Shown here in pieces: positions 2,087 through 61,682 of a stretch of DNA of 64,000 nucleotides; position 1 is the first letter of the stretch; each line of letters begins with the position of its first letter. The DNA is from Bacteroidota bacterium. Lineage in GTDB: Bacteria; Bacteroidota; Ignavibacteria; Kapaibacteriales; UBA961. The stretch is taken from positions 4,916 through 68,915 of the forward strand of contig JAFDZU010000010.1 of assembly GCA_018266765.1 (NCBI GenBank). Reading direction: 5' to 3'. A program made the translations under genes and the position numbers. The notes below the pieces were generated by a model, which had not been told where the DNA came from, did not search any database, and saw only the letters and a program-made list of their open reading frames with translations.

Positions 2087-2146
2087 ACTTTAACATTTTA
2101 GATGTTTGAGTAAAATAATAATTCTCCACCATTAAAAATTATTACT

Positions 2147-2827: not shown

Positions 2828-2859
2828 AAAACAATACAATTTATTCCTTATTGATTAGA

Positions 2860-5601: not shown

Positions 5602-5641
5602 TTGGAATTTAGAGTAAAGTGGAAGTAAAAATAATATACAA

Positions 5642-6922
5642 ATGAATATAAGAATTTCATATTTTATTGTGGTAATTGCGGTATTGTGCTTGCAGACACT
5701 ATCGGCTTTTGCTGTTTCAACAAATGAAATCGCGATAGCTACAATTGTCAATCCTTTACTTGAAAAAGATAATGAATTGCAATTTTCGGTAAACGTTACC
5801 CGCACTACTGATGAATGGGTTCGATGGGCTAATGGTACTTTCCAAATTGAATTATTCGGTGGGGGAATTAACTATCATAACTTAGGCATAGAACTTTTAC
5901 CCGATTCTACTGATTTAAATTTAAAGTATTATACTATTACTCCTCGAATTGTAACTTTAGAACTTGTTCCCGGCTCAAAAATTACAAAAGACAGAATTAG
6001 TATTACTGTTTTGGGACCTAAGGATTATTCTCAAGCTCATGAGGTTATTTTAGATACAGCAAAACCTCTTAAAGTTGGTCGTTTTCGTGTTTTTACGTTG
6101 GATAACAGTCCTTTCCCTTTACAAGTAACTATTGACTGGGCAACGCCTGTACTATATTATCAAACAACGGCTTATAAGCTATTGAATGACAGTATCCCAT
6201 GGCATTTTGGTGATAATAATATAGAAATGAGAAATAAAATTCTCTATAAATCAACCCAACGCCCGGGAATTCCGATTATGCAATTATCTCTTTGTGACAG
6301 TACTCATTACGAAGGTCAAAAAATTGTCCGGTTAAGTTGGTCTACTAATGGTGAACGTAATAGCTTTGGATTTGACATTATGCGTGCTTTGCTACCTTTT
6401 GGTGAAACTGACCCAAGTAAACTTACTTATACAAAAATAGCTTCATTCCCAAACTCTGGGCATGGTACAACATTTAAGCCTTATAGTTATGGTCCTTATT
6501 ATGATACTGTTGAAACACGTGGTGAAAAATATTTTTACAAAATCATAAGCATGTCATCTGAAAATGTACCAAATTTAGATACGAGTGGAAAAGTTATCGA
6601 GAGCTATTGCTCGGTAGATATACCGTATGCTGTTATAGTTCAAGCTGCTCCTCGTCAAAATCCTTTTAGTGAAGGTACGATAATTGATTATAAACTTGAT
6701 GATGATGTTTATTTAACAGTTAAAATTTATGATCCTATCGGACAAGAAGTAGAAACATTAGTTGATAATCAATTCCGTAAAATTGGATTCCATGATGTAA
6801 ATTTTGAGGCATCAAAATTTGCCGTTCAGGGTATGTACGAAGCAGTATTCACTGCCCATCCGATAAATGATAATTCAGTTGAATTATCACGAGCTGTCGT
6901 TAAATTACAATTAGTTCGCTAA
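5642..6922 (+). CDS. Secreted protein with a T9SS C-terminal sorting domain.
   Basis: Signal peptide …VLCLQTLSAFA. C-terminus NPFSEGTIIDYKLDDDVYLTVKIYDPIGQEVETLVDN…GMYEAVFTA…VKLQLVR is a Por_Secre_tail-like CTD. Confidence 0.7.
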   Translation: MNIRISYFIVVIAVLCLQTLSAFAVSTNEIAIATIVNPLLEKDNELQFSVNVTRTTDEWVRWANGTFQIELFGGGINYHNLGIELLPDSTDLNLKYYTITPRIVTLELVPGSKITKDRISITVLGPKDYSQAHEVILDTAKPLKVGRFRVFTLDNSPFPLQVTIDWATPVLYYQTTAYKLLNDSIPWHFGDNNIEMRNKILYKSTQRPGIPIMQLSLCDSTHYEGQKIVRLSWSTNGERNSFGFDIMRALLPFGETDPSKLTYTKIASFPNSGHGTTFKPYSYGPYYDTVETRGEKYFYKIISMSSENVPNLDTSGKVIESYCSVDIPYAVIVQAAPRQNPFSEGTIIDYKLDDDVYLTVKIYDPIGQEVETLVDNQFRKIGFHDVNFEASKFAVQGMYEAVFTAHPINDNSVELSRAVVKLQLVR

Positions 6923-6933
6923 AGAAAATTATT

Positions 6934-8415
6934 GTGAATATTCTATTCTCCATATTGAGTTTTATTGTAAAGAGTAACAGAAGTTTATTACTATCAATAC
7001 TTGTGCTCTTATGTTTGGTCTCATTTCCAGCAACTACATTTGCCCAGTCTTCAATTGGTGAATTTCGAGAAATCCGAGTATTGCCAAGTTTGGATACTTC
7101 AGTTCGCATTCGTAGAAATGGAACATGGTGGTTTGGTGCTATGGTTGGTGGAATGGGAAACTATTATCTAGGCTCACTAAATGTACCAAGACTTGGACCT
7201 GATCCCAAAAATGGAGTTGTAGAGATTACATCCGGTGACGGAAGTGGATTGTATGCAGGTCTATTATTACAATTTCAACCACTTAACTCGTATTTTGGAG
7301 GTGGACTAAGAGTAGCTCTTGCAGATAGAAGGGTGAGTTATGGTTCTACTGAAATATTGAGTAGCCCGGCAATTAATCCAAATGAAACAGATTCATCATT
7401 AAACTATCTGTCCAAAGCTATCAATAATTATATTGCAATTTCTCCTGAAATTCGGTTTAATCTTGCGTCTGAAGGACTTCACCTTCTTGGAGGATTAGAT
7501 TTGGAATTATTAGTTTCGTCAAATGCAAGCTCAGGAAGAAATTTTAAAAATGTTGCTAACATCACTCACTTACAAGTAGACACCAATTATAAACCTAATC
7601 CGGTTCGTTTTGGTGGGCACATTGGAATTGGGTTAGATATCTTTTCTGCTTCTTTATCGTCAGGATTGCGATTTAGATTGTGTCCTTATATAACACTTAA
7701 CTCAGGAACTATTGTAACAAGTAGTTTAAATTCTTCTTGGAATACTATTTTTGCTCGATTTGGAATGGATTTTAAATTTGGTTTTGATGAAATAAAAGAA
7801 ACTATTTTGCCGTTCGACCCGACCTATATAGAACCACCTCATTCATTAGCAAGTATCCAATGGGAAAAGGGAATTTCTGTTCCGGGGTTACAACGTCCAG
7901 AAAGATTAGCAGTTGCTGATATTTCTCTCGGTGCTATCGAAGCACCTCCGGTTGATGTACCTGTTGAAGTATCTTTACCTCCAACAGATGAAGTTAAACC
8001 TCTTGTTAATCCAACAATTACAGCAGAAGAAACTACCAAACCTGTATTAACTGAAAAAAAAGTACCGAAAATTACACCCGGAAAAACTGAAATTTTCTAT
8101 TTCTCGACTTCAACTTCACTTAGCATTCCCCCAAATGCAAATTCTTATTTAGATGGATTAGCAGATTACCTCAAATCAAATCCAGGTGCGACTGTTGAAA
8201 TAGTTGGACACACTGACAACCAAGGAACGGAAGCCGAACTTCAACAACTATCAATGGACCGTGCCCTTCAAGTGAGAACTTATTTACAAAAGAAGGGAAT
8301 TCCACTTCGTCGCCTTTATGCTTCTGGTAAGTCTTCTTTTAGTAGTATTGCAAGTAACAGAACAGAAGCAGGAAGAAAGCGCAACCGCCGCGTAGAAATA
8401 GTTGTTAATCCATAA
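6934..8415 (+). CDS. OmpA-family outer-membrane protein: N-terminal beta-barrel-like region, Pro/Thr/Glu linker and C-terminal OmpA/MotB peptidoglycan-binding domain. Possibly a PorP/SprF-type adaptor for the upstream cargo.
   Basis: GTG start. Signal peptide …LVSFPATTFAQ. C-terminus TVEIVGHTDNQGTEAELQQLSMDRALQVRTYLQKKGIPLRRL…RRVEIVV is the OmpA_C-like motif (TD-N-G…N..LS..RA). The PorP/SprF idea rests on position only. Confidence 0.7.
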   Translation: MNILFSILSFIVKSNRSLLLSILVLLCLVSFPATTFAQSSIGEFREIRVLPSLDTSVRIRRNGTWWFGAMVGGMGNYYLGSLNVPRLGPDPKNGVVEITSGDGSGLYAGLLLQFQPLNSYFGGGLRVALADRRVSYGSTEILSSPAINPNETDSSLNYLSKAINNYIAISPEIRFNLASEGLHLLGGLDLELLVSSNASSGRNFKNVANITHLQVDTNYKPNPVRFGGHIGIGLDIFSASLSSGLRFRLCPYITLNSGTIVTSSLNSSWNTIFARFGMDFKFGFDEIKETILPFDPTYIEPPHSLASIQWEKGISVPGLQRPERLAVADISLGAIEAPPVDVPVEVSLPPTDEVKPLVNPTITAEETTKPVLTEKKVPKITPGKTEIFYFSTSTSLSIPPNANSYLDGLADYLKSNPGATVEIVGHTDNQGTEAELQQLSMDRALQVRTYLQKKGIPLRRLYASGKSSFSSIASNRTEAGRKRNRRVEIVVNP

Positions 8416-11378: not shown

Positions 11379-12023
11379 ATGGAAATGAATGATAAAAATC
11401 CCGCCTCGCGAAATATGGGCGGAAAACTAAAAAATCTATATAATTCTTATATTCGTACTGAAGATATTCAAGGAAAACAAGCTATGAATGACGATACACT
11501 CGAACTCCACCATGAGTCGAACATTGACTCAACTGAACATCAAAATAATGATAGTTCTTTGCACGAAAAAATTATTGCACTCGAAAAAGAACGTGATGAA
11601 ATGCGCGAACAAGCTCTGAGACGCACAGCAGAATTAGAAAATTTTCGCAGACGTACCATTAAAGAAAAACAGGAACTTACAGAATATGCAAACCAACATT
11701 TGCTGTTTAAAATGCTGCCGGTTATTGACGATTTACATTCAGCACTCAATGCAGCGCAGAAAAATACTGATTACCAAAGTTTACTTGAAGGTGTTGAAAT
11801 GATTTATAAAAAAGCAGTTAAAATTTTTGAAGATTCAGGAGTACTTGTAATTGAATCATCACTCGGAGAGCCGTTTAATGTCGATGTTCACGAAGCATTG
11901 GCACACTTACCTTCCGATACTCCCGAAGGGCATATTATTCAGGAAGTACAACGCGGCTATCTCTTCAGAGATAAAGTATTACGCCATACTAAAGTAATTA
12001 CATCAGCAGGACAACCTGAATAA
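11379..12023 (+). CDS. grpE: Nucleotide exchange factor GrpE.
   Basis: Coiled-coil N-region, then RRRTIKEKQELTEYANQHLLFKMLPVIDDL and the C-terminal beta domain FNVDVHEALAHLPSD…IIQEVQRGYLFRDKVLRHTKV. SD-like GAAGGGA upstream. Confidence 0.85.
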   Translation: MEMNDKNPASRNMGGKLKNLYNSYIRTEDIQGKQAMNDDTLELHHESNIDSTEHQNNDSSLHEKIIALEKERDEMREQALRRTAELENFRRRTIKEKQELTEYANQHLLFKMLPVIDDLHSALNAAQKNTDYQSLLEGVEMIYKKAVKIFEDSGVLVIESSLGEPFNVDVHEALAHLPSDTPEGHIIQEVQRGYLFRDKVLRHTKVITSAGQPE

Positions 12024-12053: not shown

Positions 12054-13205
12054 ATGAGTAAATCTGATTATTATGATGTTTTAGGTATAAATAAATCTTC
12101 TTCGATAGATGATGTAAAAAGTGCATACCGAAAACTAGCAATGCAATATCATCCCGACAGAAATCCGGACAATAAAGAAGCTGAAGAAAAATTTAAAGAA
12201 GCAACGGAAGCATATGAAGTATTAAGTGATGCAAATAAACGTTCTCGATATGACCAATTTGGACATCAAGGTATCAGAGGCGGTCAGGATTTTCATCAAT
12301 ATCAAAATGTAAATGATATCTTTAGTGCTTTCGGAGATATGTTTAGCGGTAGCAGTATTTTTGATCAATTTTTTGGTGGAGGTCAGCAAAGACGTAATAC
12401 TTCGATGGGAGAACCCGGAAGTGATATACGAATACGACTGCCACTTACACTCGAAGAAATTGCTGATGGTACAAAAAAGAAATTAAATATCAAACGAATG
12501 GTGGTCTGTGAGCCATGTGGAGGCAAAGGTGCGAAACCTGGTAGCGGAATAAGTTCATGTTCAAGTTGTAATGGAACTGGGGAAATTAGACAAGTATCTC
12601 GTTCAGTTTTCGGACAATTTGTGAATATCGCACCTTGTGCAGCGTGTGGAGGTTCAGGGCAGATTATTAAAGAGCCCTGTGTTAGTTGTAATGGTGAAGG
12701 GCGTATAAAGGGTGAGACAACAGAAGAACTAACAATTCCAGCTGGAGTAAGCACCGGAAATTTTATTCCACTGCGTGGAAGAGGTAATGCCGGTAGAAGA
12801 GGTGGTCACCCCGGTGATGCTAATGTAATATTTGAAGAATTGGAACATGAACATTTTATTCGTCAAAATGATGATATTATTTCCGAACTTATTGTCAGTT
12901 TTCCTGAAGCAATATTAGGAGCTGAGATAGAAGTTCAGACTATTAATGGGTTCGGTGAAATTGAAATCAAAGCAGGAACACAGCCGGGAACAGAAATTCG
13001 ATTGCGTGGAAAAGGAATTCAACATTTAAATGAAAAGGGAAGAGGCGACCAAATCGTGAGAGTAAATATTCACGTTCCTAATTCACTATCAACCAAAGAA
13101 AAAACATTGATTAAAGAACTTGCTGATTGTGAAAATTTTTCACCTAATCGCGATGAGAAAAAAGGGAAGGATTTCTTTGACAGAGTGAAAGAAGCATTTT
13201 TATAA
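12054..13205 (+). CDS. dnaJ: Chaperone DnaJ.
   Basis: J-domain YYDVLGINKSSSIDDVKSAYRKLAMQYHPDRNP, G/F region, and four CxxCxGxG zinc-finger repeats (CEPCGGKG, CSSCNGTG, CAACGGSG, CVSCNGEG). Confidence 0.9.
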   Translation: MSKSDYYDVLGINKSSSIDDVKSAYRKLAMQYHPDRNPDNKEAEEKFKEATEAYEVLSDANKRSRYDQFGHQGIRGGQDFHQYQNVNDIFSAFGDMFSGSSIFDQFFGGGQQRRNTSMGEPGSDIRIRLPLTLEEIADGTKKKLNIKRMVVCEPCGGKGAKPGSGISSCSSCNGTGEIRQVSRSVFGQFVNIAPCAACGGSGQIIKEPCVSCNGEGRIKGETTEELTIPAGVSTGNFIPLRGRGNAGRRGGHPGDANVIFEELEHEHFIRQNDDIISELIVSFPEAILGAEIEVQTINGFGEIEIKAGTQPGTEIRLRGKGIQHLNEKGRGDQIVRVNIHVPNSLSTKEKTLIKELADCENFSPNRDEKKGKDFFDRVKEAFL

Positions 13206-13231
13206 TCAATTGAAAATTAATTTTTAGGTGT

Positions 13232-13747
13232 ATGGGCAAAGCATCTTTCATTAATCGTTTACAAGAAGTTTTCGGTGTAACGAAAAATGAAGTTATTGCT
13301 ATGATTTTGATGGTTAGTGGTTTGGCAGTTGGTGTAGTAATCCGTTATAATCCTTTTACATCAATTCACCCTGCTGAATATGATACTACGCTTTCACAAA
13401 AAGTGTATTTGATTTTGGATAGTATTGCTGAATCTGAAAATCGGACATTTTCAGAAGCTGATGAACAAACAAATCCAATTATTGGTCAAGGTGATACAGT
13501 AAGAGCAATGGCTCGCTATACGAGTAAAAGAAAAGAATTACCTAAGAATAAAATAAATATAGCGATTGCATTGAAGGCAGAGCTAATGCGACTGCCGGGT
13601 GTCGGTGAGAAAATGGCTGAAAAAATTCTCGAGCACAGGAAGATAACTCCATTTACATCAACACAAGATTTGATGAATGTAAAAGGAATCGGAAAAAAGA
13701 AATTCGAAAAAATTGAACCATACATTATTTTTGAAAAAAAGAAGTAA
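13232..13747 (+). CDS. ComEA-like membrane-anchored tandem helix-hairpin-helix DNA-binding protein.
   Basis: N-terminal TM (VIAMILMVSGLAVGVVI) and C-terminal HhH pairs LMRLPGVGEKMAEKILEHRK and LMNVKGIGKKKFEKIEPYI. Confidence 0.65.
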   Translation: MGKASFINRLQEVFGVTKNEVIAMILMVSGLAVGVVIRYNPFTSIHPAEYDTTLSQKVYLILDSIAESENRTFSEADEQTNPIIGQGDTVRAMARYTSKRKELPKNKINIAIALKAELMRLPGVGEKMAEKILEHRKITPFTSTQDLMNVKGIGKKKFEKIEPYIIFEKKK

Positions 13748-13791
13748 AAAATCCGTCAAGGAAATCGTCCACAAATTGAATTTCTAATGAT

Positions 13792-14703
13792 ATGCAAGCA
13801 ATCCTGACTATTTATCTTAGGAGCGACCGTACTCAAATTACCATTATTCAGCAAACAACTAAAGGATTTGAACTTAGTTATATAAAGTCCATTCCAGAAT
13901 ATGTTGATTCGGATGGTGATGTGTTTATGTTTTTAAAAAAAATAGAGTTACTTAGGCGAGAAATAATAGTTCATTATGATAAAATAAGAATATGTTTTCC
14001 TACCGAGAATATATTTGTTCACCAATTTCCTGCTGTAAAATCTAGTAATCAAGATGGTCTCAAGCAACTGCTTGAGTTAGAAATTCGCCAAGCATATCCT
14101 CAGCATTCCCTTGAAGATTATCACTCTATTGTATTACCTTTAACTCCAAAATTAGATGGCTCGGAAATGATGATTGCATTGATGATTGAAAAAGAGCAAC
14201 TCATAGTAGCCAATCAAATTTCTGAAATTTTTGATCTTAGGTGTGAGAACGTATATATTAGTCATTTTGCTGCACATGGTGCATTACTTTATAATTATCC
14301 TGAGCAAACAGAAAATACTATCATTGTAATTGGAATTCAGAATAGATTTGCAGACATAAGTGTACTCAAGAAAGGGGTTCTTGCATATTATGGTATTGTA
14401 CCTTATAATTTTAAAGATGAAGTTGGTAAAATATTTGATAAAGAAATTGAAAAGCTCCTTTCAGAATATATTCCATTTGCTGATTCAGCTTTTATTTTCG
14501 GTCCGGGACTTACCAGCGAAATTCTCTCACTAATCAGTGAAATATTACCATTGCCAATTCAACGCCTCAATCCTTTTCGAATGATGACTACCAAATTAAG
14601 TAGTTCTGACCGTGAGTATTGTACCAAAGCTGCACACCTTTTTCCTCCTAGTGTAGGTACTTCACTACCTGAAATTCAATCAGAAGATATGATTAAACTG
14701 TAA
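13792..14703 (+). CDS. Hypothetical protein, possibly a degenerate PilM/FtsA-like actin-fold protein.
   Basis: The order of secondary-structure-like segments resembles PilM (N-terminal beta strands ILTIYLRSDRTQITIIQ; central EMMIALMIEKEQLIVANQISEIFDLRCENVYIS; TIIVIGIQNRFADISVLKKGVLAYYGIVPYNF). The phosphate-1 DxGxxxxK-type motif is not conserved. The call is weak. Confidence 0.35.
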   Translation: MQAILTIYLRSDRTQITIIQQTTKGFELSYIKSIPEYVDSDGDVFMFLKKIELLRREIIVHYDKIRICFPTENIFVHQFPAVKSSNQDGLKQLLELEIRQAYPQHSLEDYHSIVLPLTPKLDGSEMMIALMIEKEQLIVANQISEIFDLRCENVYISHFAAHGALLYNYPEQTENTIIVIGIQNRFADISVLKKGVLAYYGIVPYNFKDEVGKIFDKEIEKLLSEYIPFADSAFIFGPGLTSEILSLISEILPLPIQRLNPFRMMTTKLSSSDREYCTKAAHLFPPSVGTSLPEIQSEDMIKL

Positions 14704-14880
14704 AATATCACGATGTTTGATGGTTATTCATAGTTCACCATTATAAAAAATTACCTTCTCTATGAAAAATAGAGTGTAAAGATTCCTCCAGAAAAGTTAT
14801 TTTTGAATAAGTTTAATGCGTCAAATTAATTTGGTGTGTATCTAATTTTAATAGTTCAACCGACTAAATACGAGCCAATT

Positions 14881-17334
14881 ATGCCTCAAAATCCTATTCC
14901 TAGCAAAGAAATCGAATCCTCAATTCAGAAATTTTGGGATGTAGTAAAATTATCAGGAGAATTGATAATTTCATTGCAAGAAGATAATGCTTCGCTTGCC
15001 CAAAAAGTAGCAGGGATTGAAGACTTGTTTGATGGAAAAAAAGTTGAATATGCTGCTTTAACCAATAGACTATCAGAACTTCAAACTCAGATTGAAGGTT
15101 ATCAAGCTCGTATTCAAAAAGTAAGTATTCAAGAAGCTCAGCAAAAGGATTTATTAGATTCTCTCGAAGAAAAAAACCGTAAAATAAAAGAGATTACAAA
15201 TGAAAAGAATGCTTTAGAAACTGAAAAATTAACATTAGTACAAACTGTAGAATCTTTACAAGAAGCTGTAATTAATCATGAACATTCTCTACGTCGAATT
15301 GAATTATTAGAACAAGAAAAGCAGGAATTGACTGGGCATTTGGATGAGATGAAGGAGTTTGAACAAAATAGGGAAATGATTCAGAAAGAACTTGCAAGAC
15401 GGAACGTAGAAGTAAATACTCGAATAAATGAAGCTCAACAATATAAGAATCAAATTGCTGAAATTGAAGATAAACTTTTTGAAATCCCAAAGTTAAAAGA
15501 GGAAATCGAGAAACTAATTACTTCGCTTTCGACTATCACCGAACAACGCGATAAATTGCTCCAAACTCATGAGCAAGCCGCTGAATTTACTAAAAACTAC
15601 GAAGACTTACAATCCAAATTACAAGAATATTCAAACCAAATTCTCGAATCTCAAAATCAAAAAGAGACAGACGACTCAACTATAGCAGAAGCTTTTGAAC
15701 GAATTACTGACCTTGAAAACAAACTAAATTCCGAACGATCTACTCAAGCTCGCCTCCATGTAGAGTTGCGCTCTGCTCGTGATTATGAAGAGCAAATTGC
15801 CAGACATTTAGGAGCGTTGGATGAATATTCATCCCAAATATTAGAACTAAAGAAGCAGAAATCTCTAACTGAACAATTGTTTGCAGAGGCGCAATCAGCG
15901 ATGCTTGCCGCACAAGCCGCTTTTGAAGTCGAAAAATCAAGTAACTGGGATTTGTCTGAAAAATATCAAATTCTTTCAGGACAATTAGTTACAGCTCAAA
16001 GTGAACTTGAAAAGCAATTAAATAGATTTAATTCTCTCGATGAAATACATAAAACCACAGATAAAAATTATAAAGAATTAAAAGAAGCGACTGAGCTTGC
16101 TCAAATCCAAACAAGTGAATATTTAACTGCTAAAAATGAAGCAGAACATCAATTAGAAAATGAAAAGGAACAAAGAACAGCAATTGAAGCTACAATTGCA
16201 ACTCTTAATTCTGAGTTAAGTCATTCAAAAAAAGAAGTATTGGAATTGCAAGGTGAAATTGAGAAAACTATTCTAACCAAAGCTGAAATAGAAGAAAAAG
16301 TAATTGAAATTCAAGGTAATTACGATTCTCTAAAATCAACCTTTGAATCGTTAAATAAAGAATTAATTGCCACCAAGAAAGAATCTGATAATTTACACAA
16401 TGAACTAGAAAAAATTGCATTAGCCAAGGCAGACGCTGAAGAAAAATTACGTGAAGCAATTGAAAAACAAACAACTTCAGAAATAAGTAATGATTTGTCC
16501 GGAAAAGAGCTAATTGCATATAAAAAGGAAATCACTGAATTACAAAGTGAACTCGAAAAAATTGCTTTGGCAAAAGCAGACACAGAGGAGAAATTACAAG
16601 AAGAGATTGATCTTCATAAGATTTCAGAATCAAAATTTAAAGAAATTAGCAAAGAACTTTTAGAATCGAAAAAAGAAAGTAAACACTTACAAGATGAATT
16701 AGAAAAATTAGCTTTAGCCAAAGTAGGAATTGAGGAAAAAATTCTTGAAGAAACTGAACTTCGTAAAACTCTAACGAAAAAATTAGAACAAGCATTAGAA
16801 GAAAAATCATTGTTGACAAAAGAATTACACGTTAAAGTGGAACAAGAAGAGTTGGGTAGTAACGAACTGTTGGCAGAAATTACTCGAACAAAAGAAGAAG
16901 TTAAATCTTTACGGAAAAAGCTGGCAATAGAAGAAGAAGAGAAAACTCAGCAAGATCTAATAATTCAACAATATAAAGAAGCGTATGATGCAGCAGACCG
17001 GATTCATCAATATAACAAAAGTCTTGAACGAGAACGAGATGAATTAACAATTGAATTAAGTAAAGTGCGACAAGCACTTTATAATTCTAATGAACAGATG
17101 CAAAAAAACGAGAATGAACTATTATCTCGTATCGAAATTTTAAATAAAGAATTAGCTGTCACTCAAACTGAAGATAAAGTACTAAAAACACTTTCTGTAA
17201 AAAAGGGTAAAAACATACCTATAATTGAACCTATTGTAGAAATACCAGCAATAGAAGATAAAAAAGCTGTAGTTGTCAACAAAATAGGGGATATTCTTGC
17301 AAGATTAGAAGAAGCATTACACCAACCAGAATAG
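14881..17334 (+). CDS. Long coiled-coil protein (~818 aa) with internal ~49-aa tandem repeats.
   Basis: The ORF-track start at 14836 is GTG; the first ATG is 14881 (MPQNPIPSK…). The protein is almost entirely E/K/L/Q heptads. It carries three copies of ELEKIALAKADAEEKL-like units. Confidence 0.7.
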   Translation: MPQNPIPSKEIESSIQKFWDVVKLSGELIISLQEDNASLAQKVAGIEDLFDGKKVEYAALTNRLSELQTQIEGYQARIQKVSIQEAQQKDLLDSLEEKNRKIKEITNEKNALETEKLTLVQTVESLQEAVINHEHSLRRIELLEQEKQELTGHLDEMKEFEQNREMIQKELARRNVEVNTRINEAQQYKNQIAEIEDKLFEIPKLKEEIEKLITSLSTITEQRDKLLQTHEQAAEFTKNYEDLQSKLQEYSNQILESQNQKETDDSTIAEAFERITDLENKLNSERSTQARLHVELRSARDYEEQIARHLGALDEYSSQILELKKQKSLTEQLFAEAQSAMLAAQAAFEVEKSSNWDLSEKYQILSGQLVTAQSELEKQLNRFNSLDEIHKTTDKNYKELKEATELAQIQTSEYLTAKNEAEHQLENEKEQRTAIEATIATLNSELSHSKKEVLELQGEIEKTILTKAEIEEKVIEIQGNYDSLKSTFESLNKELIATKKESDNLHNELEKIALAKADAEEKLREAIEKQTTSEISNDLSGKELIAYKKEITELQSELEKIALAKADTEEKLQEEIDLHKISESKFKEISKELLESKKESKHLQDELEKLALAKVGIEEKILEETELRKTLTKKLEQALEEKSLLTKELHVKVEQEELGSNELLAEITRTKEEVKSLRKKLAIEEEEKTQQDLIIQQYKEAYDAADRIHQYNKSLERERDELTIELSKVRQALYNSNEQMQKNENELLSRIEILNKELAVTQTEDKVLKTLSVKKGKNIPIIEPIVEIPAIEDKKAVVVNKIGDILARLEEALHQPE
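16400..16765 (+). repeat. Three imperfect ~147-bp tandem coding repeats inside the coiled-coil gene.
   Basis: gaactagaaaaaattgcattagccaaggcagacgctgaagaaaaatta (16402), gaactcgaaaaaattgctttggcaaaagcagacacagaggagaaatta (16549) and gaattagaaaaattagctttagccaaagtaggaattgaggaaaaaatt (16695). Confidence 0.7.
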
Positions 17335-17470
17335 AAAATTTTGCATCATTTAACTTTGTAAACAAAGCAAATTACTTATACCAAAAAATAATTTGTAACT
17401 TTTTTTTAGGGTACGGTGTCTGTAGATTTGAACGCCGAAACTATAATTAACTGATTTTTGGAGAAATGCC

Positions 17471-18034
17471 ATGTCGCTGTCAGTCCGAAAGCCGAATGAA
17501 GACGATTTGCGAGAAGCTGCCGACGAATTACGTTCGGGAAGCGCGGTGGCATTTCAGTTTCTCTACAAAGAGTATTCTCACAGCGTTTATCGGTTTTGTT
17601 TTAGAATGGTTGGTGATTCGGTAGCAGCACAAGATGCATTTCAAGAGACATTTATGAAGGTGTATGAACACCATCAAGAGTTTAGAGGGGACAATTTTGC
17701 GGCTTGGTTATTTACAATTGCCCGGAGGGTATGTCTTAACCATCTTCGTTCTAAAAAAGACCATGCGATTTTCGATGAAGAAGAGCATGGTTCAAATTCT
17801 CTCTTTCCGGTAAATGATATAGGTATGCAACTTTGCGTTAATAATGCACTTATGCTCCTACCGCTACAGCTTCGAGAAGCTGTAATCCTTCGTGAATACG
17901 AAGGATATTCTTATCAAGAAATAGCATTAATAGTTAGTATTGATATTTCACTTGCAAAAGTTCGGGTACATCGAGCCAGATTACTTCTTCGTAAATTATT
18001 AGCACCTGTTATGCAGGAATGGTATGAATCTTAA
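17471..18034 (+). CDS. ECF-type RNA polymerase sigma-70 family factor.
   Basis: Region 2 FQFLYKEYSHSVYRFCFRMVGDSVAAQDAFQETFMKVY. Region 4 HTH YSYQEIALIVSIDISLAKVRVHRARLLLRK. 187 aa. Confidence 0.8.
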   Translation: MSLSVRKPNEDDLREAADELRSGSAVAFQFLYKEYSHSVYRFCFRMVGDSVAAQDAFQETFMKVYEHHQEFRGDNFAAWLFTIARRVCLNHLRSKKDHAIFDEEEHGSNSLFPVNDIGMQLCVNNALMLLPLQLREAVILREYEGYSYQEIALIVSIDISLAKVRVHRARLLLRKLLAPVMQEWYES

Positions 18035-19427
18035 TCTTCTTATATCGAAATATGTAGATGGTGACCTCACAATAGAGGAAGACCAGCTATTGCGTTGCCT
18101 GCTGAGCGAAGATTCAGCAGCGAAAGAAGCATTTGATGCCGCTACAGCGTTACACCTAACTATGCTCGAAGACGAAGATAGTATTAGTATTCCTAATGAT
18201 TTTCTTTTGGAAACAGAAGCATTTATCACAATGAAATTTGCTACTGATGAAGCAATTGCAAAAGCTCTTCTACGAGAAAATAACATAAAAAACTTCAAAA
18301 ATAATTTAAGAAAATTAAGTTCAGTTGTTGTTGCTTTACTCTTTATATTTACTGTACCTTTTAGTGATTTGTTTTTACAAAGAAAATCTAATTTTGCAGA
18401 GAATACACAACAAATAGTTGATTCACAAAATGAAGCTTCTTTACAATCCTTTCATTTCTCAAATAGTAAAAGTAACAGAAATGGACAGATAACTCGTTTC
18501 TCATTAAGAAAACAAGATGTTTCAGCTTCGATGAATAACAGGTTATTGGCAGATAAAAACGTAAATATTGAATCGAATGCAGTTGAAACAATCAGCATTG
18601 AAACTCCATTTCTTACAAAAGATGCACCGAAGCCATTACCATCGGTTGTGTTGGCTTCGAGGAATGCACAATATTCTACTCTAGATTATAATAGTGGTAC
18701 TTTTGCTCAACAGTTCAATAGTAGTGGTATCTCACAGTCTAATTCCACTATTTATCAAACAAGTACTCATGCGGACCAACCGTTAAATAGTGAACAAACA
18801 GAAATTCAAGCTAAAAATACAGAGATTCAAGTAAATACTTTTTTATCAAATAAAGTTGCTAATAATCGAGATAATGCTATTTCAACGACAGCAATTTCTC
18901 AAAGTATTTCCTATTCACTCAATGAAAAAAGTAAAGTAGGTGTTGAAATCGGTTATAATGGATATTCTTACCGAGGTGGTGGAATAGTTCTTGTCCCTCG
19001 TGGAACAAGTTCTGTACTTTCCAAATCTACCATTCTAAGTATGGATGGGCCTGAAAGTGGAATTCCCGGAAAAGATTTAAATCCGATTGCCGAGAAAGCT
19101 TCTCAGAGCAAAGCCGAAGGATTTGAAGAAAAAAATGTTGAATACTCGATTGATAAAACTATGTATTGGGGAGCGGCTTTCTATGAATATATGATTTTTA
19201 ACAAAGGAAATATTTCTGTGAATGGTCGTATTGGTGCCGGTGGTTCAAATGATGGTGCGATGGCATTTACTCGCGCATTTGCTCGGTATGATGTTGTGAA
19301 AGGTGTTTCCTTAACTGTCGGTGCTGAGGCAAATGCTTTTATGGTAAATATGCAGACTCTTCCCAATGATAAAGAATCGATAAATTCAGGAATATCATTG
19401 GTCTACGGTATGCAAATAAAATTCTGA
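18024..19427 (+). CDS. Putative anti-sigma factor, translationally coupled to the sigma gene. It has a single TM and a large periplasmic region whose C-terminus looks like an OMP beta-barrel.
   Basis: Its start overlaps the sigma stop by 11 nt. N-terminal anti-sigma-like helix YVDGDLTIEEDQLLRCLLSEDSAAKEAF. TM LSSVVVALLFIFTVPF. C-terminal alternating hydrophobic pattern ending …GISLVYGMQIKF (terminal Phe). Confidence 0.5.
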   Translation: MNLNLLISKYVDGDLTIEEDQLLRCLLSEDSAAKEAFDAATALHLTMLEDEDSISIPNDFLLETEAFITMKFATDEAIAKALLRENNIKNFKNNLRKLSSVVVALLFIFTVPFSDLFLQRKSNFAENTQQIVDSQNEASLQSFHFSNSKSNRNGQITRFSLRKQDVSASMNNRLLADKNVNIESNAVETISIETPFLTKDAPKPLPSVVLASRNAQYSTLDYNSGTFAQQFNSSGISQSNSTIYQTSTHADQPLNSEQTEIQAKNTEIQVNTFLSNKVANNRDNAISTTAISQSISYSLNEKSKVGVEIGYNGYSYRGGGIVLVPRGTSSVLSKSTILSMDGPESGIPGKDLNPIAEKASQSKAEGFEEKNVEYSIDKTMYWGAAFYEYMIFNKGNISVNGRIGAGGSNDGAMAFTRAFARYDVVKGVSLTVGAEANAFMVNMQTLPNDKESINSGISLVYGMQIKF

Positions 19428-19560
19428 ACCTAAAGTAAAAGTGTTAAAAATCTGTAAAGTTTTTGTGTCTTTAAAAAATTAAAGTTTGGCAACATACAGT
19501 AAATCTTCTTATTTTCGGATAATGTTAAATAATGTATTATATGTTTTATTGGAGTTATAT

Positions 19561-21654
19561 ATGAAAAATTCGTTTCTTGTTCCTATTTTATCCGTTGGAT
19601 TACTGCTTGGCTCAGTTTCTTCCAGTATCGCCCAACGAACAGATAAAATTCCTGCTACAAATCTAAATACTCAAGTATTAGTTCGAGATGTGCACACACC
19701 AACACATAAATATGTTCCAAATTCTCCCGACGAAAGCACTCCTATTGCACCTTTTTCCCAAAAAGAAATTAAAAAAATCACTAAAAACACTGGTAACTCT
19801 GTTTTAGGTGGTGATAAAAAAATCAATGTAAACCTGCCGGGAGTTAAAGTTGGCTATACTTATTATGATTTCCAAACCAATAATTCAATGCCCGAACGCC
19901 TTGCATTATTCTCTGATGGAAATGATAAATATATTCAAATGTTTTGGATGGCTTCATTAGATAGCTCTAAAGAAGGAGCAACTGGTCAGTTACCAATTGT
20001 TGGATTTAATAATCAACGTGGCGCACACTATGCTTTTGTAGATGTATCAAAACCAGATGCACCTGCAAGTCAATATGAATGGAAAAAAATGGCTGCTGAA
20101 AAAAATGGTGGTACTGCAGAACGTCGTGGGTGGCCTTCAATTGTTCAATTTAAAAATGGAAGTGTCGGAACTCCTTCACACACACCTGTTGATTTCTTTA
20201 AAAGCCCTGATGTAGGTGATGAAAACTTTACAAGAACAACGGTTGACCAAACTACTTCTACTTGGCCAAGAGCTGCAATAGACGGTCAAGATATTGTTCA
20301 TGTTATTTATAATACTAATGCTTCGACTAATTCAGATGCCACACAAAACTTTACATGCTACCGTCGCTCGACTGATAAAGGAAAAACATGGGAAGCTGAA
20401 AAGATACTTACAAATGCTGCTTTTGACGGTAATTTTCCGCGTGGTGGTGGTGGTGATTCCTATGCAATTGCCGCACGAGACAATAATGTAGTAATATTGT
20501 ATGGTGAATATCCTTCTGAAAGAGCACTATATCGCAAATCTACTGATAATGGAGTAACTTGGAGTGCACCTCTCTTGGTATTAAATCGTTCCTTCCCTGG
20601 AAAAGATACAACAGTTGTTAGTGGAAATACTGTGCATTTAACATCAGAAGTTAGTATAGTAAGTGGTGAACAATTTGATGTAATTATTGATTCGGAAGGT
20701 AAAGCTCATTTTGCATTTAATTTAACACAGGCATATTTAACAAGTTCCGGAACAAAAAGTGTAATAAACGGTAAAGATAGTATAACTAATAGAAGTGATA
20801 CAATCAATTATTTAGATCAGCTATCTGACTATAAAGATGCAAATTTAGGAATCCTTTATTATAAAGAAGGCGATCAATTCCTTTATTATATTGCTCGCCC
20901 GGCATCCATTAATTGGGATGGAGCAGGAACTGTGGTAAGTCGTAGAGCAAGTTCTGGTATTAGCCGTTATCCTCAATTAGGCATAGATGACAAAGATAAT
21001 ATATATATGACCTTTACCTCAGTTAAAAGTGGCGATACGAAGCCAGTTATGGTAGATAATTCTTCTCCTCGTGATGGAGTGCCTGATATTCAGGTTGATG
21101 GTTTAATGGGGCATATTTATGTTACCCATCGTCTAAAAGGTGATAATCCTAATTGGTCATTACCGAAAGATATAACACCTGCCGGAGTAGATTGTCTTTT
21201 TGGAACATTATGTAATACAGTAGCTGATGGTAGAATGTATATCGGTTATTCGGCAGATAATACTCCTGGCGATCGTGTTACCAATACGGAGCTTCCAACA
21301 GAACAAACTGAGATTTATGTATATCCATTTCCAACAACTGAATTAAACCCTATTCCACCGGTTGGAGTACAAGAAGAAGCCGAGGCAAATGACGGGCTTG
21401 CACTTACAGCACAACCAAATCCAACGAATGGCTTAACGGTATTTGCTTTTACAGCACCTCAAAACGGCAATGCTAAAGTAACTCTTACAAATGGTCTTGG
21501 AATGAATGTAGCAATTCTTTATAATGGAATGCTAACAGCCGGAACAACACAAAGTGTTAATTTTAACGCTCAAAATCTTTCTTCAGGTGCATACTATGCA
21601 ACTTTTGAAATCAATGGACGGAAAATTACAAAGATGGTATCAATCATAAAATAA
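19561..21654 (+). CDS. Secreted BNR/Asp-box repeat protein (sialidase-like beta-propeller) with a T9SS C-terminal sorting domain.
   Basis: The ORF track begins at 19486; ATG 19561 gives the signal peptide MKNSFLVPILSVGLLLGSVSSSIAQ with GGAG upstream. Asp-boxes STDKGKTWE and STDNGVTWS. CTD …TAQPNPTNGLTVFAFTAP…VTLTNGLGMNVAILYNG…SSGAYYATFEINGRKITKMVSIIK. Confidence 0.7.
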   Translation: MKNSFLVPILSVGLLLGSVSSSIAQRTDKIPATNLNTQVLVRDVHTPTHKYVPNSPDESTPIAPFSQKEIKKITKNTGNSVLGGDKKINVNLPGVKVGYTYYDFQTNNSMPERLALFSDGNDKYIQMFWMASLDSSKEGATGQLPIVGFNNQRGAHYAFVDVSKPDAPASQYEWKKMAAEKNGGTAERRGWPSIVQFKNGSVGTPSHTPVDFFKSPDVGDENFTRTTVDQTTSTWPRAAIDGQDIVHVIYNTNASTNSDATQNFTCYRRSTDKGKTWEAEKILTNAAFDGNFPRGGGGDSYAIAARDNNVVILYGEYPSERALYRKSTDNGVTWSAPLLVLNRSFPGKDTTVVSGNTVHLTSEVSIVSGEQFDVIIDSEGKAHFAFNLTQAYLTSSGTKSVINGKDSITNRSDTINYLDQLSDYKDANLGILYYKEGDQFLYYIARPASINWDGAGTVVSRRASSGISRYPQLGIDDKDNIYMTFTSVKSGDTKPVMVDNSSPRDGVPDIQVDGLMGHIYVTHRLKGDNPNWSLPKDITPAGVDCLFGTLCNTVADGRMYIGYSADNTPGDRVTNTELPTEQTEIYVYPFPTTELNPIPPVGVQEEAEANDGLALTAQPNPTNGLTVFAFTAPQNGNAKVTLTNGLGMNVAILYNGMLTAGTTQSVNFNAQNLSSGAYYATFEINGRKITKMVSIIK

Positions 21655-21889: not shown

Positions 21890-24800
21890 ATGAAACGTAA
21901 TCTACTTCTTATGATTATGATTATGATGACTATTCCAATAGTCGCTTCTGCGGGTATAACAGGAGTTTTATCGGGTAAGGTCGTAGATGAAAAAGGAAAA
22001 GCTATCGGCGGGGCATCTATCCGTATAGTCGGAACAAACCGTGGAGGTAATTCTAAACTCAATGGTTCTTTTATTATTTCTAACATAAATGCAGGAAGTT
22101 ATGATGTCTTAGTAAAATTTGTTAACTATAAGGATTATACAACTTCTGTAAGAATCTCTGCTGACCAAACAACTGAAATTACTGTTAAAATGGTGGAATC
22201 AGTCATACAAACTAAAGAGGTTGTTGTAATAGATCATTTATATGAAAAATTAGTTGATAAAGGTAAAGTTGGTTCAATCAGAAGTAGTACCGGAGAAGAA
22301 AATACAAAAATTGCTCGTGAAACAGTTCAACAAGCTGTTGCCCTCAAAGCAGGTGTTCAAGCAACCGGAGGGGGATTTGAAATTCGTGGTAGCCGTTCCA
22401 ATGAAACTCAAATTAGAGTAGATGGACTTGATATGGGTGATCAATTTACCGGAGGATTCGGTAACGCTGGATTCAATCTAACTCCAACTGTAAGTAGTTT
22501 TGCTGTTGAAGAGGTACAAGTATTAACCGGTGGATTCTCTGCCGAATATGGAAATGCATTAGGTGGCGTTGTGAATACTGTGGTTAAAACCGGAAGTACT
22601 GATAGATACGAAGGATTTGCCAGATGGAGAACAGATGCACCTACATTATTTGGAAAAGCAGGAAACGGAATTCAGTTAATGGGTAAGAATGAAAATACCT
22701 ATGAACTTGGAGTTGGCGGACCTATCCCAGCTTTAACAGGTTCAAGCTTTTATTTAACGGGAAAATATGCGTATCAAAAATATGGTGGAAATGGATTAGG
22801 GGTTTTTGACCCATGGGGAAATAATTTAGGACAGATTGGAAATACTCAGACTTGGGTGAAAAATATAACCGGACGATTAAAATTTTATTTTGACAACATA
22901 TCTTTAAATATAGGTGGTCAGTTAGGACTATCCCAACGCGAAAGAGGTTCGTGGGGGTGGCTTTATGCGAATGACTATGGAGTAACGAATCTTCGAAATG
23001 AAGGCGGACGCATAGTTGGTGATACTAATTATGTTCGTGAAGGAATAGCAAAACCGGCAGTTGTTAACGCTAATGTTAGTAACTTATTTGTATCAATAAA
23101 TCATGTGTTAAGTAATGAAACTTTTTATGAATTTAAAGTTTCGACAAATATTAATACAAGTGACGTTTCTAAACGCAGTAACTTTAATGATCCTTCACTC
23201 TTGGGTGGGTTTGAAGTTTATACTCCTGCTGATAATTATGCTTCAGAATTTGACCCAAATAATCCTTTCCAAATGATAGCAGGTCATGATAGAGCTATAG
23301 ATATATTTCAATCTTTACCAAAAACTGTACCGACTGTAGATGGATATGCAAGTAATGACTATTTACAAAGAAATCATATTACCGGGTATATTGAAGGACC
23401 TGCAGATGCGACCGGAACTCAAAACCCCTATGGACTTGCGGGCTACTTTAATCAGCATGGTAACGATAGGAATTTTGATTTCCGCCGTTCTACTTTCCTT
23501 CAATTCGATGGTAATTTTAATACAATTATCAATGCTGGTGATACGAGTGCTGTAAAACATTTTATTAAAGCAGGTTTTGAATTGAGGACATTTACATTGA
23601 AACGTCATCAAAATAGTTTACCTTGGGATGGCAATGCATTTTACGATGTTTATACTGATGAATTTGGTGGAAATCCCTATGCAGATAATGCAATAGCCAA
23701 AAGCATTACAGAACAACCTAAAAAACCACTTTCAGGTGCAATTTATGTACAAGACCAAATGAGTTACAAAGGAATCATTATTAATCCTGGTTTGAGATTT
23801 GACTTTACAGACCCTAATTCTACATATCGTTTGCCAAGTACATACTTTACACCTATTACTTCAGATAGCGGATTTGCAAAAACTACGTTAAAATATCAAG
23901 TAAGTCCCCGTATTACAGTAGCTTATCCGGTTACAGATCGTTCGATACTTAATATTAGTTATGGTATTTATTTCCAGATGCCGGTTTTGAGTCAATTGTA
24001 TGATGCTTTTAACACAGACAGATTACGTGCCGGTTCGATTCTTGGTAATCCACAATTACCAGCACAACGTACAAATCAATATCAAGTAGCTTATAATCTT
24101 CAACTCACCGATGATTTTGCTTTTGATGTTACTGCTTACTACAAAGATAACTACAATCAAACAGGTTTAGTCCATGTGTATGCTATTCCAGATTCTTATG
24201 ATGAATATAGTGTATCTGAATATGGAAATAGTAGAGGTATAGAAATTACATTTAAAAAACGCCCTACGAATAATATTGGACTAAATTTAAATTATACACT
24301 TTCTTCAACTACTGCAACTTCTTCAGCAACTGAAGATAACTATAATCGCCCAGTAGACCCTTATACAAATAAAACGGCATTTCCGCTTTCAGAATTCCCT
24401 TATTCTAATGACCGTCGTCATCAACTGACCGGAATAGTCGATTTTGTTTGGGCCAGAGAAGAAGGACCGGGAATTGGTGGAATCAAACCTTTGGAAAATG
24501 TTAATTTAAACTTTACAACACGTTTTCAAACTGGAACTCCCTATACACGATATAGTCCAAAAGGTGTAGCAATTAGTGATTTTAATTCTGAACGTCAGCC
24601 ATCTTCATGGCAAACTGATATGCGTTTTACAAAGGCATTTCCTCTAAAAGATTGGTTTGGAGAAGGTTTCAGCAAAACAACCCTTGAATTTTTTGTGGAT
24701 GTATTAAATCTCTTTAATAGAACAGACTTTACAAGTGTGTATGCAAGAAGTGGTGATCCCGACCAAGATAATAGCTCCTATAACCGTGCACTTGGTGACT

Positions 24801-25045
24801 TTAGTGCAACTGTATATTATAAAACCGCTTCTCTGATCAATGCAACTACTTATCGATCTGACCAATATGATCGTTTCGGAAATCGACTGTACACTCCTCA
24901 AGCTGACTTTAATAATGATGGACAAGTGACTCAACTTGAGAAGTATCAATCCTATTTGAGTTTTGTAAATACTGCTCAAGCTCGAAGAGCTGCGAATTAT
25001 CAAGCTCCAAGACAAGTGTTTTTTGGCTTTATGATTCGCTTCTAA
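21890..25045 (+). CDS. TonB-dependent outer-membrane receptor with an N-terminal carboxypeptidase-regulatory-like domain.
   Basis: Signal peptide. CarbopepD_reg-like GVLSGKVVDEKGKAIGGASIRIVG…GSYDVLVKFVNYKDY. Plug-like EIRGSRSNETQIRVDGLDMGD. 1051 aa, ending in the beta-barrel terminal …FGFMIRF. Confidence 0.8.
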   Translation: MKRNLLLMIMIMMTIPIVASAGITGVLSGKVVDEKGKAIGGASIRIVGTNRGGNSKLNGSFIISNINAGSYDVLVKFVNYKDYTTSVRISADQTTEITVKMVESVIQTKEVVVIDHLYEKLVDKGKVGSIRSSTGEENTKIARETVQQAVALKAGVQATGGGFEIRGSRSNETQIRVDGLDMGDQFTGGFGNAGFNLTPTVSSFAVEEVQVLTGGFSAEYGNALGGVVNTVVKTGSTDRYEGFARWRTDAPTLFGKAGNGIQLMGKNENTYELGVGGPIPALTGSSFYLTGKYAYQKYGGNGLGVFDPWGNNLGQIGNTQTWVKNITGRLKFYFDNISLNIGGQLGLSQRERGSWGWLYANDYGVTNLRNEGGRIVGDTNYVREGIAKPAVVNANVSNLFVSINHVLSNETFYEFKVSTNINTSDVSKRSNFNDPSLLGGFEVYTPADNYASEFDPNNPFQMIAGHDRAIDIFQSLPKTVPTVDGYASNDYLQRNHITGYIEGPADATGTQNPYGLAGYFNQHGNDRNFDFRRSTFLQFDGNFNTIINAGDTSAVKHFIKAGFELRTFTLKRHQNSLPWDGNAFYDVYTDEFGGNPYADNAIAKSITEQPKKPLSGAIYVQDQMSYKGIIINPGLRFDFTDPNSTYRLPSTYFTPITSDSGFAKTTLKYQVSPRITVAYPVTDRSILNISYGIYFQMPVLSQLYDAFNTDRLRAGSILGNPQLPAQRTNQYQVAYNLQLTDDFAFDVTAYYKDNYNQTGLVHVYAIPDSYDEYSVSEYGNSRGIEITFKKRPTNNIGLNLNYTLSSTTATSSATEDNYNRPVDPYTNKTAFPLSEFPYSNDRRHQLTGIVDFVWAREEGPGIGGIKPLENVNLNFTTRFQTGTPYTRYSPKGVAISDFNSERQPSSWQTDMRFTKAFPLKDWFGEGFSKTTLEFFVDVLNLFNRTDFTSVYARSGDPDQDNSSYNRALGDFSATVYYKTASLINATTYRSDQYDRFGNRLYTPQADFNNDGQVTQLEKYQSYLSFVNTAQARRAANYQAPRQVFFGFMIRF

Positions 25046-47576: not shown

Positions 47577-47603
47577 GATTCTATTTTTAAAATTTTAATT
47601 TAC

Positions 47604-61626: not shown

Positions 61627-61682
61627 AAAAAAATATATAATAGTCATATTGAACAGACCGTTAAACCTAAGGTGCAATAGGC

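Follow-up and report, generated by a model that had tools for sequence, protein, structure and literature searches.

Downstream of grpE and dnaJ in a 64-kb stretch of a Kapaibacteriales genome (contig JAFDZU010000010.1 of assembly GCA_018266765.1), three consecutive genes encode a ComEA-like protein, a protein of 303 amino acids (aa) resembling PilM and a long coiled-coil protein, and this array raises the question of whether the three genes belong together. The sequence-only reading, made from the letters of the whole stretch that we analyzed (hereafter the window; G+C content of ~35%), had suggested that they constitute a cytoskeletal or DNA uptake module in which a giant coiled coil takes the place usually held by pilN, pilO, pilP and pilQ. 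Its basic observation proved sound: the three open reading frames (ORFs) are present on the plus strand behind grpE and dnaJ, both confirmed by Pfam, and encode the ComEA-like helix-hairpin-helix (HhH) protein (171 aa, bitopic; 13232-13747), the PilM-like protein (13792-14703) and the coiled-coil protein (817 aa; 14881-17334). Our comparison with related loci suggested, with a probability of roughly 0.6, that two gene blocks, each conserved independently, have come to lie side by side in this lineage, with the PilM-like protein as an orphan pseudo-ATPase adaptor and the coiled-coil protein as a separate entity. An actin/coiled-coil machine of the proposed kind would have amounted to a new cytoskeletal or uptake system, but the evidence reads as an accident of gene order and that claim falls away. 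What remains is an uncharacterized PilM offshoot with dead motifs, found across Kapabacteria-type bacteria, in a lineage reported to be pilus free.

We compared gene order in a set that contained one genome per GTDB species, which yielded 39 Kapabacteria-type loci that were then annotated by BLAST with the window proteins and with RsmD from related loci; 38 of these were evaluable for the slot downstream of the PilM-like gene and 36 for the upstream HhH gene, and one metagenomic locus (L003) and the window itself were considered in addition. The coiled-coil gene directly followed the PilM-like gene in 3 of the 38 loci (L009-L011) as well as in L003 and the window, a clade whose PilM-like proteins share at least 60% identity. 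The gene most often found in this slot was rsmD (23/38 loci; identified by Pfam Cons_hypoth95 at ~1e-40), separated from the PilM-like gene by -4 to +28 nucleotides (nt); rsmD is the deep-rooted and translationally coupled partner on this side. At 50% identity of the PilM-like protein (L001, 11098-11655, and L002, 4520-5077, both Candidatus Kapaibacterium sp.), the slot held a gene for a membrane-protein-like product of 185 aa with hydrophobic segments, and at 44 to 46% identity it held unrelated genes. The possibility that the 185-aa product is a diverged RsmD was ruled out, as it had no methyltransferase match, and it could be assigned to no family. Furthermore, no RsmD homolog was found anywhere in the 64-kb window.

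On the upstream side, the ComEA-like gene directly preceded the PilM-like gene in 11 of the 36 loci (gaps of 17 to 69 nt). In L001-L003, L009-L013, L020, L022 and L023, the HhH and PilM-like genes were preceded by dnaJ, grpE was syntenic with these three genes in L010, L011, L020, L022 and L023, and the full order grpE-dnaJ-HhH-PilM-like-rsmD was retained in L020, L022 and L023. Parts of this order were also seen in remote relatives of the PilM-like protein that match the Pfam family PilM_2: one has the order PilM-like-rsmD-coaD and another (P0120) the order HHH_3-PilM-like, while in three further remote relatives for which no Pfam match was recorded the PilM-like gene and rsmD overlap by 4 nt. 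Block A hence consists of grpE (11379-12023; Pfam GrpE, 2.3e-44), dnaJ (12054-13205; Pfam DnaJ, DnaJ_C and DnaJ_CXXCXGXG), the ComEA-like gene and the PilM-like gene, all on the plus strand, and was ancestrally continued by rsmD and, in one remote relative, coaD.

The coiled-coil gene keeps different company. Its distant ortholog P0027 (locus L051) lies away from any PilM-like gene, behind a gene for an unrelated 1111-aa protein of secreted type, and the genes that follow it encode counterparts of the proteins encoded behind the coiled-coil gene of the window, namely a sigma factor (58% identity), an anti-sigma-like protein of 455 aa (31% over the full length), a TonB-dependent receptor (53%) and a large protein (53%). 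Block B therefore runs from the coiled-coil gene through genes for an extracytoplasmic function (ECF) sigma factor, an anti-sigma protein and, in the window, a BNR protein with a type IX secretion system (T9SS) sorting tail, to those for a TonB-dependent receptor and a 1323-aa protein. Because of this synteny and of the neighborhood of P0027, we assign the PilM-like gene to grpE, dnaJ, HhH and rsmD, and the coiled-coil gene to the sigma factor and the TonB-dependent receptor. Contact between the blocks is limited to the clade of the window, where rsmD is no longer found behind the PilM-like gene. The three genes are thus not co-conserved in relatives, and the view of a single module with the coiled coil standing in for pilNOPQ was not borne out: the coiled-coil gene occupies the slot in 3 of 38 loci, rsmD occupies it in 23, and P0027 resides elsewhere.

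The spacers within the window were informative as well. The tight spacing that the sequence-only reading had noted applies to the first pair only, with 44 nt between the ComEA-like and PilM-like genes, whereas the coiled-coil gene is preceded by a spacer of 177 nt and followed by one of 136 nt ahead of the sigma factor gene. No terminator-like sites were predicted within these three gaps. An alignment of five loci revealed a conserved noncoding block (~14763-14843, plus strand) in the 177-nt spacer, the 25-nt core of which (AGAAAAGTTATTTTTGAATAAGTTT, 14790-14814) is invariant in all five, at 54 to 62% identity of the flanking proteins. Within the block, TATTTTTG agrees with the -7 promoter consensus of Bacteroidetes (TAnnTTTG), and the block probably serves the coiled-coil gene as a promoter or operator. 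A search of positions 13000-17600 against Rfam gave no match, and folding of the 177-nt spacer RNA predicted no stable structure (z = 0.12). Together with the ECF-type motif ahead of the sigma factor gene described below, this spacer speaks for separate units.

It is therefore very unlikely, in our judgment, that the ComEA-like, PilM-like and coiled-coil proteins constitute one cytoskeletal or DNA uptake module in which the coiled coil replaces PilN/O/P/Q. Such a module would be in line with the same-strand adjacency retained in the window, L003 and L009-L011, with the absence of predicted terminators between the genes and with the C-terminal end of the coiled-coil protein, where a flexible linker leads to a conserved amphipathic helix that might fit into the groove of an actin fold. 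Nevertheless, this adjacency is confined to one clade (3/38 loci), the slot is elsewhere taken by rsmD, the gene for the 185-aa membrane protein or unrelated genes, the distant coiled-coil ortholog keeps its sigma/receptor block with no PilM-like gene nearby, and the 177-nt spacer carries an invariant promoter-like block in front of the coiled-coil gene. A docking of the C-terminal helix on the actin fold that is specific to this clade could in principle occur, but nothing in the data speaks for it.

If the PilM-like protein is not part of such a module, the question arises as to what it is. An AlphaFold2 (AF2) model built on the family alignment had a pLDDT of 87.4 and a pTM of 0.87, and the order of its secondary structure elements, as read from the model, agrees with an actin fold that carries a 1C insertion of the FtsA/PilM type. 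When the model was compared with the PDB by Foldseek, PilM came first (E values of 3e-19 to 6e-16; query-normalized TM-score of up to 0.73), and the top 10 matches were all PilM structures, from Pseudomonas aeruginosa, Myxococcus xanthus and Thermus thermophilus. These were followed by FtsA (6e-14), BT_3980/DUF3822 (3HRG; 5.8e-12, target-normalized TM-score of 0.65) and EpsL/GspL (~7e-10 to 1e-9). The closest known structures are accordingly those of PilM, a component of the type IVa pilus alignment complex (5EOU and 5EOX of P. aeruginosa, 2YCH of T. thermophilus and 3JC8 of M. xanthus), and the C-terminal LNxFR...IGxxL of the 303-aa protein aligns with NPF...GLALR of PilM, although the protein is ~50 aa shorter than PilM.

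Profile comparisons led to the same assignment. The close family comprises 19 clusters at 90% identity in a search of 5.8 billion proteins and is thus small and lineage restricted, while an exhaustive hidden Markov model (HMM) search of 1.8 billion representative proteins returned 86 clusters at E values of ≤1e-30 and 436 relatives at ≤1e-3. The profile of the family matched M. xanthus PilM (3jc8) with an E value of 4e-5. The remote relatives align with the family over the full length (hhalign probability of 100%, E value of 8e-54), match PilM structures at 8e-32 and 1e-16 in profile searches and, in 26 of 39 cases, match PilM_2 (PF11104) at an E value of ≤0.01. No PilM_2 match at an E value of ≤1 was obtained for the window protein or for any of the 19 close members, and homology to PilM was therefore reached solely via profiles. 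No Pfam family was matched above threshold by the 303-aa protein, and FtsA and SHS2_FTSA gave no match; its score for DUF3822 (PF12864) was 14.6 bits against a gathering score of 24.9, and 12 of the 19 close members gave weak DUF3822 matches that all remained below gathering (best E value of 1.3e-4). Collectively, these data show that the 303-aa protein is a member of a family of short (~290 to 310 aa) PilM homologs with FtsA/PilM 1C-type topology, in agreement with the actin fold that had been anticipated from the order of its segments.

The loss of the canonical phosphate-binding motifs, which had also been noted from the sequence, extends to the entire family of 58 members. The phosphate-1 (D-x-G) and phosphate-2 (D-x-G-x-x-T) motifs are absent in 19 of 19 close and 39 of 39 remote members; the adenosine GG motif is missing in all 19 close members, and a GG-type match was found in one of the 39 remote ones. 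In the HMM alignments, the DIG of PilM faces YLR or YFG and the DIGATMT of PilM faces GIQNRFA. The aligned PilM structures, in contrast, keep their nucleotide motifs (P. aeruginosa and T. thermophilus; in part M. xanthus). The motifs are likewise intact in the FtsA encoded in the same window (61683-62945; Pfam FtsA and SHS2_FTSA), which carries DIGTSK, DIGGGTTD and GGSA, and its gene adjoins ftsQ (identified by POTRA_1 and FtsQ_DivIB_C; the pair spans 60847-62945). Because of this ftsQ-ftsA pair, the organism has a normal FtsA besides the PilM-like protein, and a role of the 303-aa protein as a stand-in for FtsA was ruled out. Although FtsA shares the actin fold with the 1C insertion, it possesses an SHS2 domain and nucleotide motifs, neither of which is present in the 303-aa protein. 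It represents a pseudo-ATPase derived from PilM, distinct from the FtsA of the cell.

These features point to a possible mode of action. The protein would be neither an ATPase nor an ATP-dependent polymer. A functional precedent for a motif-dead member is provided by the cytoplasmic domain of GspL/EpsL (1YF5, 1W97 and 4PHT), which has an actin-like fold as well, albeit with a weaker structural match to the 303-aa protein, and which works free of nucleotide as a protein-binding adaptor; however, GspL/EpsL continues into transmembrane and periplasmic portions and its genes reside in gsp operons, unlike the 303-aa protein. PilM clamps the N-terminal peptide of PilN, and FtsA binds the C-terminal tail of FtsZ, a peptide of a filament-forming partner. 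By analogy with PilM/PilN, FtsA and cytoplasmic GspL with GspE, the PilM-like protein may be a cytoplasmic adaptor that needs no nucleotide and grips a short peptide of a partner protein at the inner membrane, independently of a type IV pilus machine. Whereas PilM genes have pilN/O/P/Q as partners, the gene of the 303-aa family is never followed by them, and no Pil families were detected among the window ORFs of at least 150 aa or beside the gene in the examined loci. Its tight coupling to the housekeeping genes rsmD and dnaJ suggests constitutive expression.

The most economical candidate ligand for such a clamp is the product of the adjacent ComEA-like gene. In this protein, an N-terminal tail of ~20 aa is followed by a single hydrophobic helix, a linker in which a YxxLDSIA segment is conserved, and a C-terminal HHH_3 domain (PF12836), which is a tandem helix-hairpin-helix DNA-binding domain (aa 105-165; 65.6 bits against a cutoff of 27; E value of 4.3e-18). 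The hydrophobic segment (VIAMILMVSGLAVGVVI, aa ~21-38), recognized by inspection, is kept in the orthologs, as is the LQxxFGxTKxE motif of the tail. The ComEA-like architecture noted for the first gene was in this way borne out. By analogy with PilN, which presents a comparable tail in front of one hydrophobic helix, the tail of the ComEA-like protein might be the peptide that the PilM-like protein clamps. The protein falls below the NCBIfam cutoffs for ComEA (TIGR01259, 51.3 versus 152.35 bits; TIGR00426, 41.9 versus 53.1 bits); "ComEA-like" is a fair label for the architecture, and membership in the competence family proper goes beyond this evidence.

The pairing of a ComEA-type HHH_3 protein with a PilM homolog also bears on the idea that the two are what is left, or the minimal core, of a pseudopilus system for competence, with the PilM-like protein still working with pilus-type components encoded elsewhere. 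The pair is present in 11 Kapabacteria loci and in one remote relative, and the PilM of Thermus is annotated as a competence protein (title of PDB entry 2ych). Yet, no pil or com genes were found among the other ORFs of the window or, in any locus, adjoining the gene, the nucleotide motifs of PilM are lost and the scores for the ComEA equivalogs are below the cutoffs. Moreover, the complete genome of Kapabacteria Ch6 was reported to be devoid of type IV pilus genes (PMC7509429), and this very genome (CP058732, locus L043) carries the PilM-like-rsmD pair. Taken together, we judge a competence core to be quite improbable.

The frequent linkage with rsmD raised the question of whether RsmD, the 16S rRNA m2G966 methyltransferase, is the functional partner of the PilM-like protein, which would then tether or regulate late maturation of the 30S subunit, the clade of the window having merely relocated rsmD. 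In most loci, including those of remote relatives, rsmD lies directly downstream with overlaps of 1 or 4 nt. To our knowledge, though, no actin-fold partner of RsmD has been described, and housekeeping operons of the rsmD-coaD type often gather unrelated genes. In addition, rsmD is missing from the slot in 15 of the 38 loci, and no homolog is encoded in the window, so the linkage is dispensable. A parallel neighborhood has been described in Bacteroides, where genes of the DUF3822 and RsmD families occur together in one conserved clsA neighborhood (bioRxiv 10.1101/2025.05.12.653583), and this parallel speaks for a partnership. On balance, we regard a dedicated RsmD partner as a rather doubtful explanation and retain two juxtaposed blocks with a nucleotide-independent adaptor as the preferred one.

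The Bacteroides parallel directs attention to DUF3822 itself (PF12864; BT_3980, 3HRG), a Bacteroidota family with an actin-like fold. It shares the fold of the 303-aa protein and, like the 303-aa family, belongs to the Fibrobacteres-Chlorobi-Bacteroidetes (FCB) group, but it ranks below PilM and FtsA in the structural comparison; the 303-aa protein is ~45 aa longer than BT_3980/DUF3822 and structurally nearer to PilM. From the weak profile matches and the similar neighborhoods, we infer that the two families may be orthologous. In a broader version of this idea, the Kapabacteria family would form one FCB-wide orthologous group together with the short PilM_2-positive relatives and the Bacteroidota DUF3822 proteins. 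Its members would be PilM-derived, motif-dead adaptors that are detached from type IV pili, act constitutively and are translationally coupled to rsmD; they may clamp the cytoplasmic tail of the ComEA-like membrane protein, which would yield an envelope or DNA-receptor anchor independent of pili, or tether late 30S maturation to the membrane, and in the clade of the window they may also have recruited the coiled-coil rod via its C-terminal helix. We consider this possible but on the whole unlikely. If orthology with DUF3822 held, a core Bacteroidota protein of solved structure would gain both a PilM origin and a peptide-clamp model.

We then turned to the coiled-coil protein. The ORF starts mechanically with GTG at 14836, and the triplet at 14878 is ATT; because the homologs begin with MPQN and a 100%-identical database protein (P0020) is also 817 aa long, the true start is the ATG at 14881. 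The protein, taken to have ~818 aa and to be an almost pure coiled coil, is therefore 817 aa in length, and its AF2 model is indeed nearly all helical (92% helix). The model consists of four long helices (10-199, 209-353, 361-533 and 543-763), a disordered segment (764-795) and a short amphipathic C-terminal helix (796-815) that is conserved and supported by the hydrophobic moment; these residue numbers follow the 818-residue translation from 14878, so that 1 has to be subtracted for the 817-aa protein. Orthologs down to 28% identity share an N-terminal block (FWDVVKLSGELIVSLQEDNASL), central blocks between aa ~140 and 330 (IQKELARRN.E.N.R.NE.Q.Y.N..AE.E.KLF.IPKL and LH.ELRSAR.YE.QI) and a C-terminal block (V.NKIGDIL.RLE.AL.). 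The family counts 9 database clusters and is confined to a few lineages of the Ignavibacteria/Kapabacteria type.

No signal peptide and no other domain were detected in the protein, and searches of the whole protein and of the three conserved blocks against Pfam and NCBIfam, together with a PDB profile search, returned generic coiled-coil noise only. A ZapB-like character of the N or C terminus had been suspected, and it was unsupported by these searches. As a long coiled-coil rod with repeats that are multiples of the heptad, the protein resembles crescentin, Scy/FilP and the arms of SMC and Rad50. Its matches to models of SMC, Rad50 and crescentin nevertheless were weak, compositional, limited to the coiled-coil parts of these models and far below the cutoffs; the SMC/Rad50-type match was restricted to coiled-coil segments (42 bits against a cutoff of 567), and ABC-type ATPase head and hinge domains are absent, the AF2 model showing helices only.

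The repeats reported for this gene proved to be exactly 49 aa (147 nt, 7 heptads) long, as had been described, but protein-level comparison revealed four units rather than three (16255-16842). They begin in register at aa 459, 508, 557 and 606 of the 817-aa protein, with a degenerate upstream unit (EIEKTILTKAE) and three clear ones (ELEKIALAKAD, ELEKIALAKAD and ELEKLALAKVG). Pairwise identity is 31 to 55% at the protein level and 48 to 64% at the DNA level; this low DNA identity explains why Tandem Repeats Finder and a DNA repeat finder detected no 147-nt repeat in 14800-17400. Four units are also present in P0022 and P0023 (71 to 95% identity) and in L010 (59%), three are present in P0024-P0026 (~55%) and none is recognizable in P0027 and P0028 (~28%). 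Since the unit count differs between relatives, the length of the rod has changed in steps of 7 heptads during evolution. The expectation of variable-number repeats thus holds between species (4 versus 3), but no variation occurs among near-identical relatives, in which the repeat number is constant at 817 to 819 aa and 71 to 100% identity. The units are old and diverged, and nothing in their sequence suggests ongoing copy-number switching. We regard the coiled-coil protein as a cytoplasmic rod former in its own right, the representative of a new small family whose rod length varies in 7-heptad steps.

Several points weigh against the interpretation of two juxtaposed blocks with an orphan adaptor. 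The adjacency of the coiled-coil gene is stable in at least five genomes of the clade (the window, L003 and L009-L011), and this stability, together with the lack of terminators, leaves room for read-through cotranscription and a clade-specific link. The C-terminal linker and amphipathic helix of the coiled-coil protein are, moreover, of the peptide type that FtsA/PilM-type proteins bind. Conversely, the HhH gene, which encodes the favored ligand, is adjacent in only 11 of the 36 loci, and both the clamp and its ligand are extrapolated from the behavior of the family. The absence of pilN/O/P/Q rests on the window, the flanks of the loci and the published statement on Ch6, and the overlap of the PilM-like gene with rsmD (1 nt in 16 of 23 loci) was counted after heuristic refinement of the gene starts.

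The remaining genes of block B continue the same-strand run of the window behind the coiled-coil gene. The sigma factor gene (17471-18034; Pfam Sigma70_r2, 1.8e-19, and Sigma70_r4_2, 3.5e-12) encodes sigma70 regions 2 and 4 only, as is typical of the ECF type, and its stop codon overlaps the start of the 467-aa ORF (18024-19427), which has a syntenic ortholog in L051. This ORF had no Pfam match; from its position and an N terminus that appears anti-sigma-like by inspection, we infer that it encodes a putative anti-sigma protein. Its hydrophobic segment at aa ~98-115 and a C terminus (...GMQIKF) resembling an outer membrane beta-barrel signature are odd for an anti-sigma factor. The run continues with the genes for the BNR protein with its Por_Secre_tail sorting domain (19486-21654), the TonB-dependent receptor-like protein (21890-25045; Pfam CarboxypepD_reg and Plug) and the 1323-aa protein (25095-29066), all on the plus strand.

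An ECF-type promoter-like motif (TGTAAC-N17-GTGTCTG; 17394-17422, plus strand) lies 5' of the sigma factor gene and has conserved counterparts in L003, in L010 and even in the distant L051. It occurs twice in the 64-kb window, against 0.05 matches expected, the second match (2961-2990) being located inside an ORF. No copy of it precedes the coiled-coil gene. Membership of the coiled-coil gene in the regulon of the sigma factor was examined by means of this motif and dismissed, as the motif precedes the sigma gene only.

A second ECF sigma gene (47604-48179) is accompanied by a gene for a zf-HC2 anti-sigma protein (47025-47576) on the minus strand (47025-48179). Markers of the T9SS, in the form of PorZ-like and Por_Secre_tail proteins, are encoded at 53952-56195 and 40820-42394 on the minus strand and at 19486-21654, which fits the FCB group; with close homologs labeled Ignavibacteriae, Candidatus Kapaibacterium or "Bacteroidetes bacterium", these markers point to a Kapabacteria-type member of that group. 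Several GTDB-representative metagenome-assembled genomes that carry the locus (L010, L022, L028, L031 and others) are titled "uncultured Hyphomicrobiales" or "Chitinophagaceae" and are probably mislabeled bins. Finally, five consecutive same-strand ORFs at 107-8415 (659, 226, 916, 426 and 493 aa), the first four of which have no Pfam match at 1e-5 and the last of which ends in an OmpA domain, may represent an envelope gene cluster.

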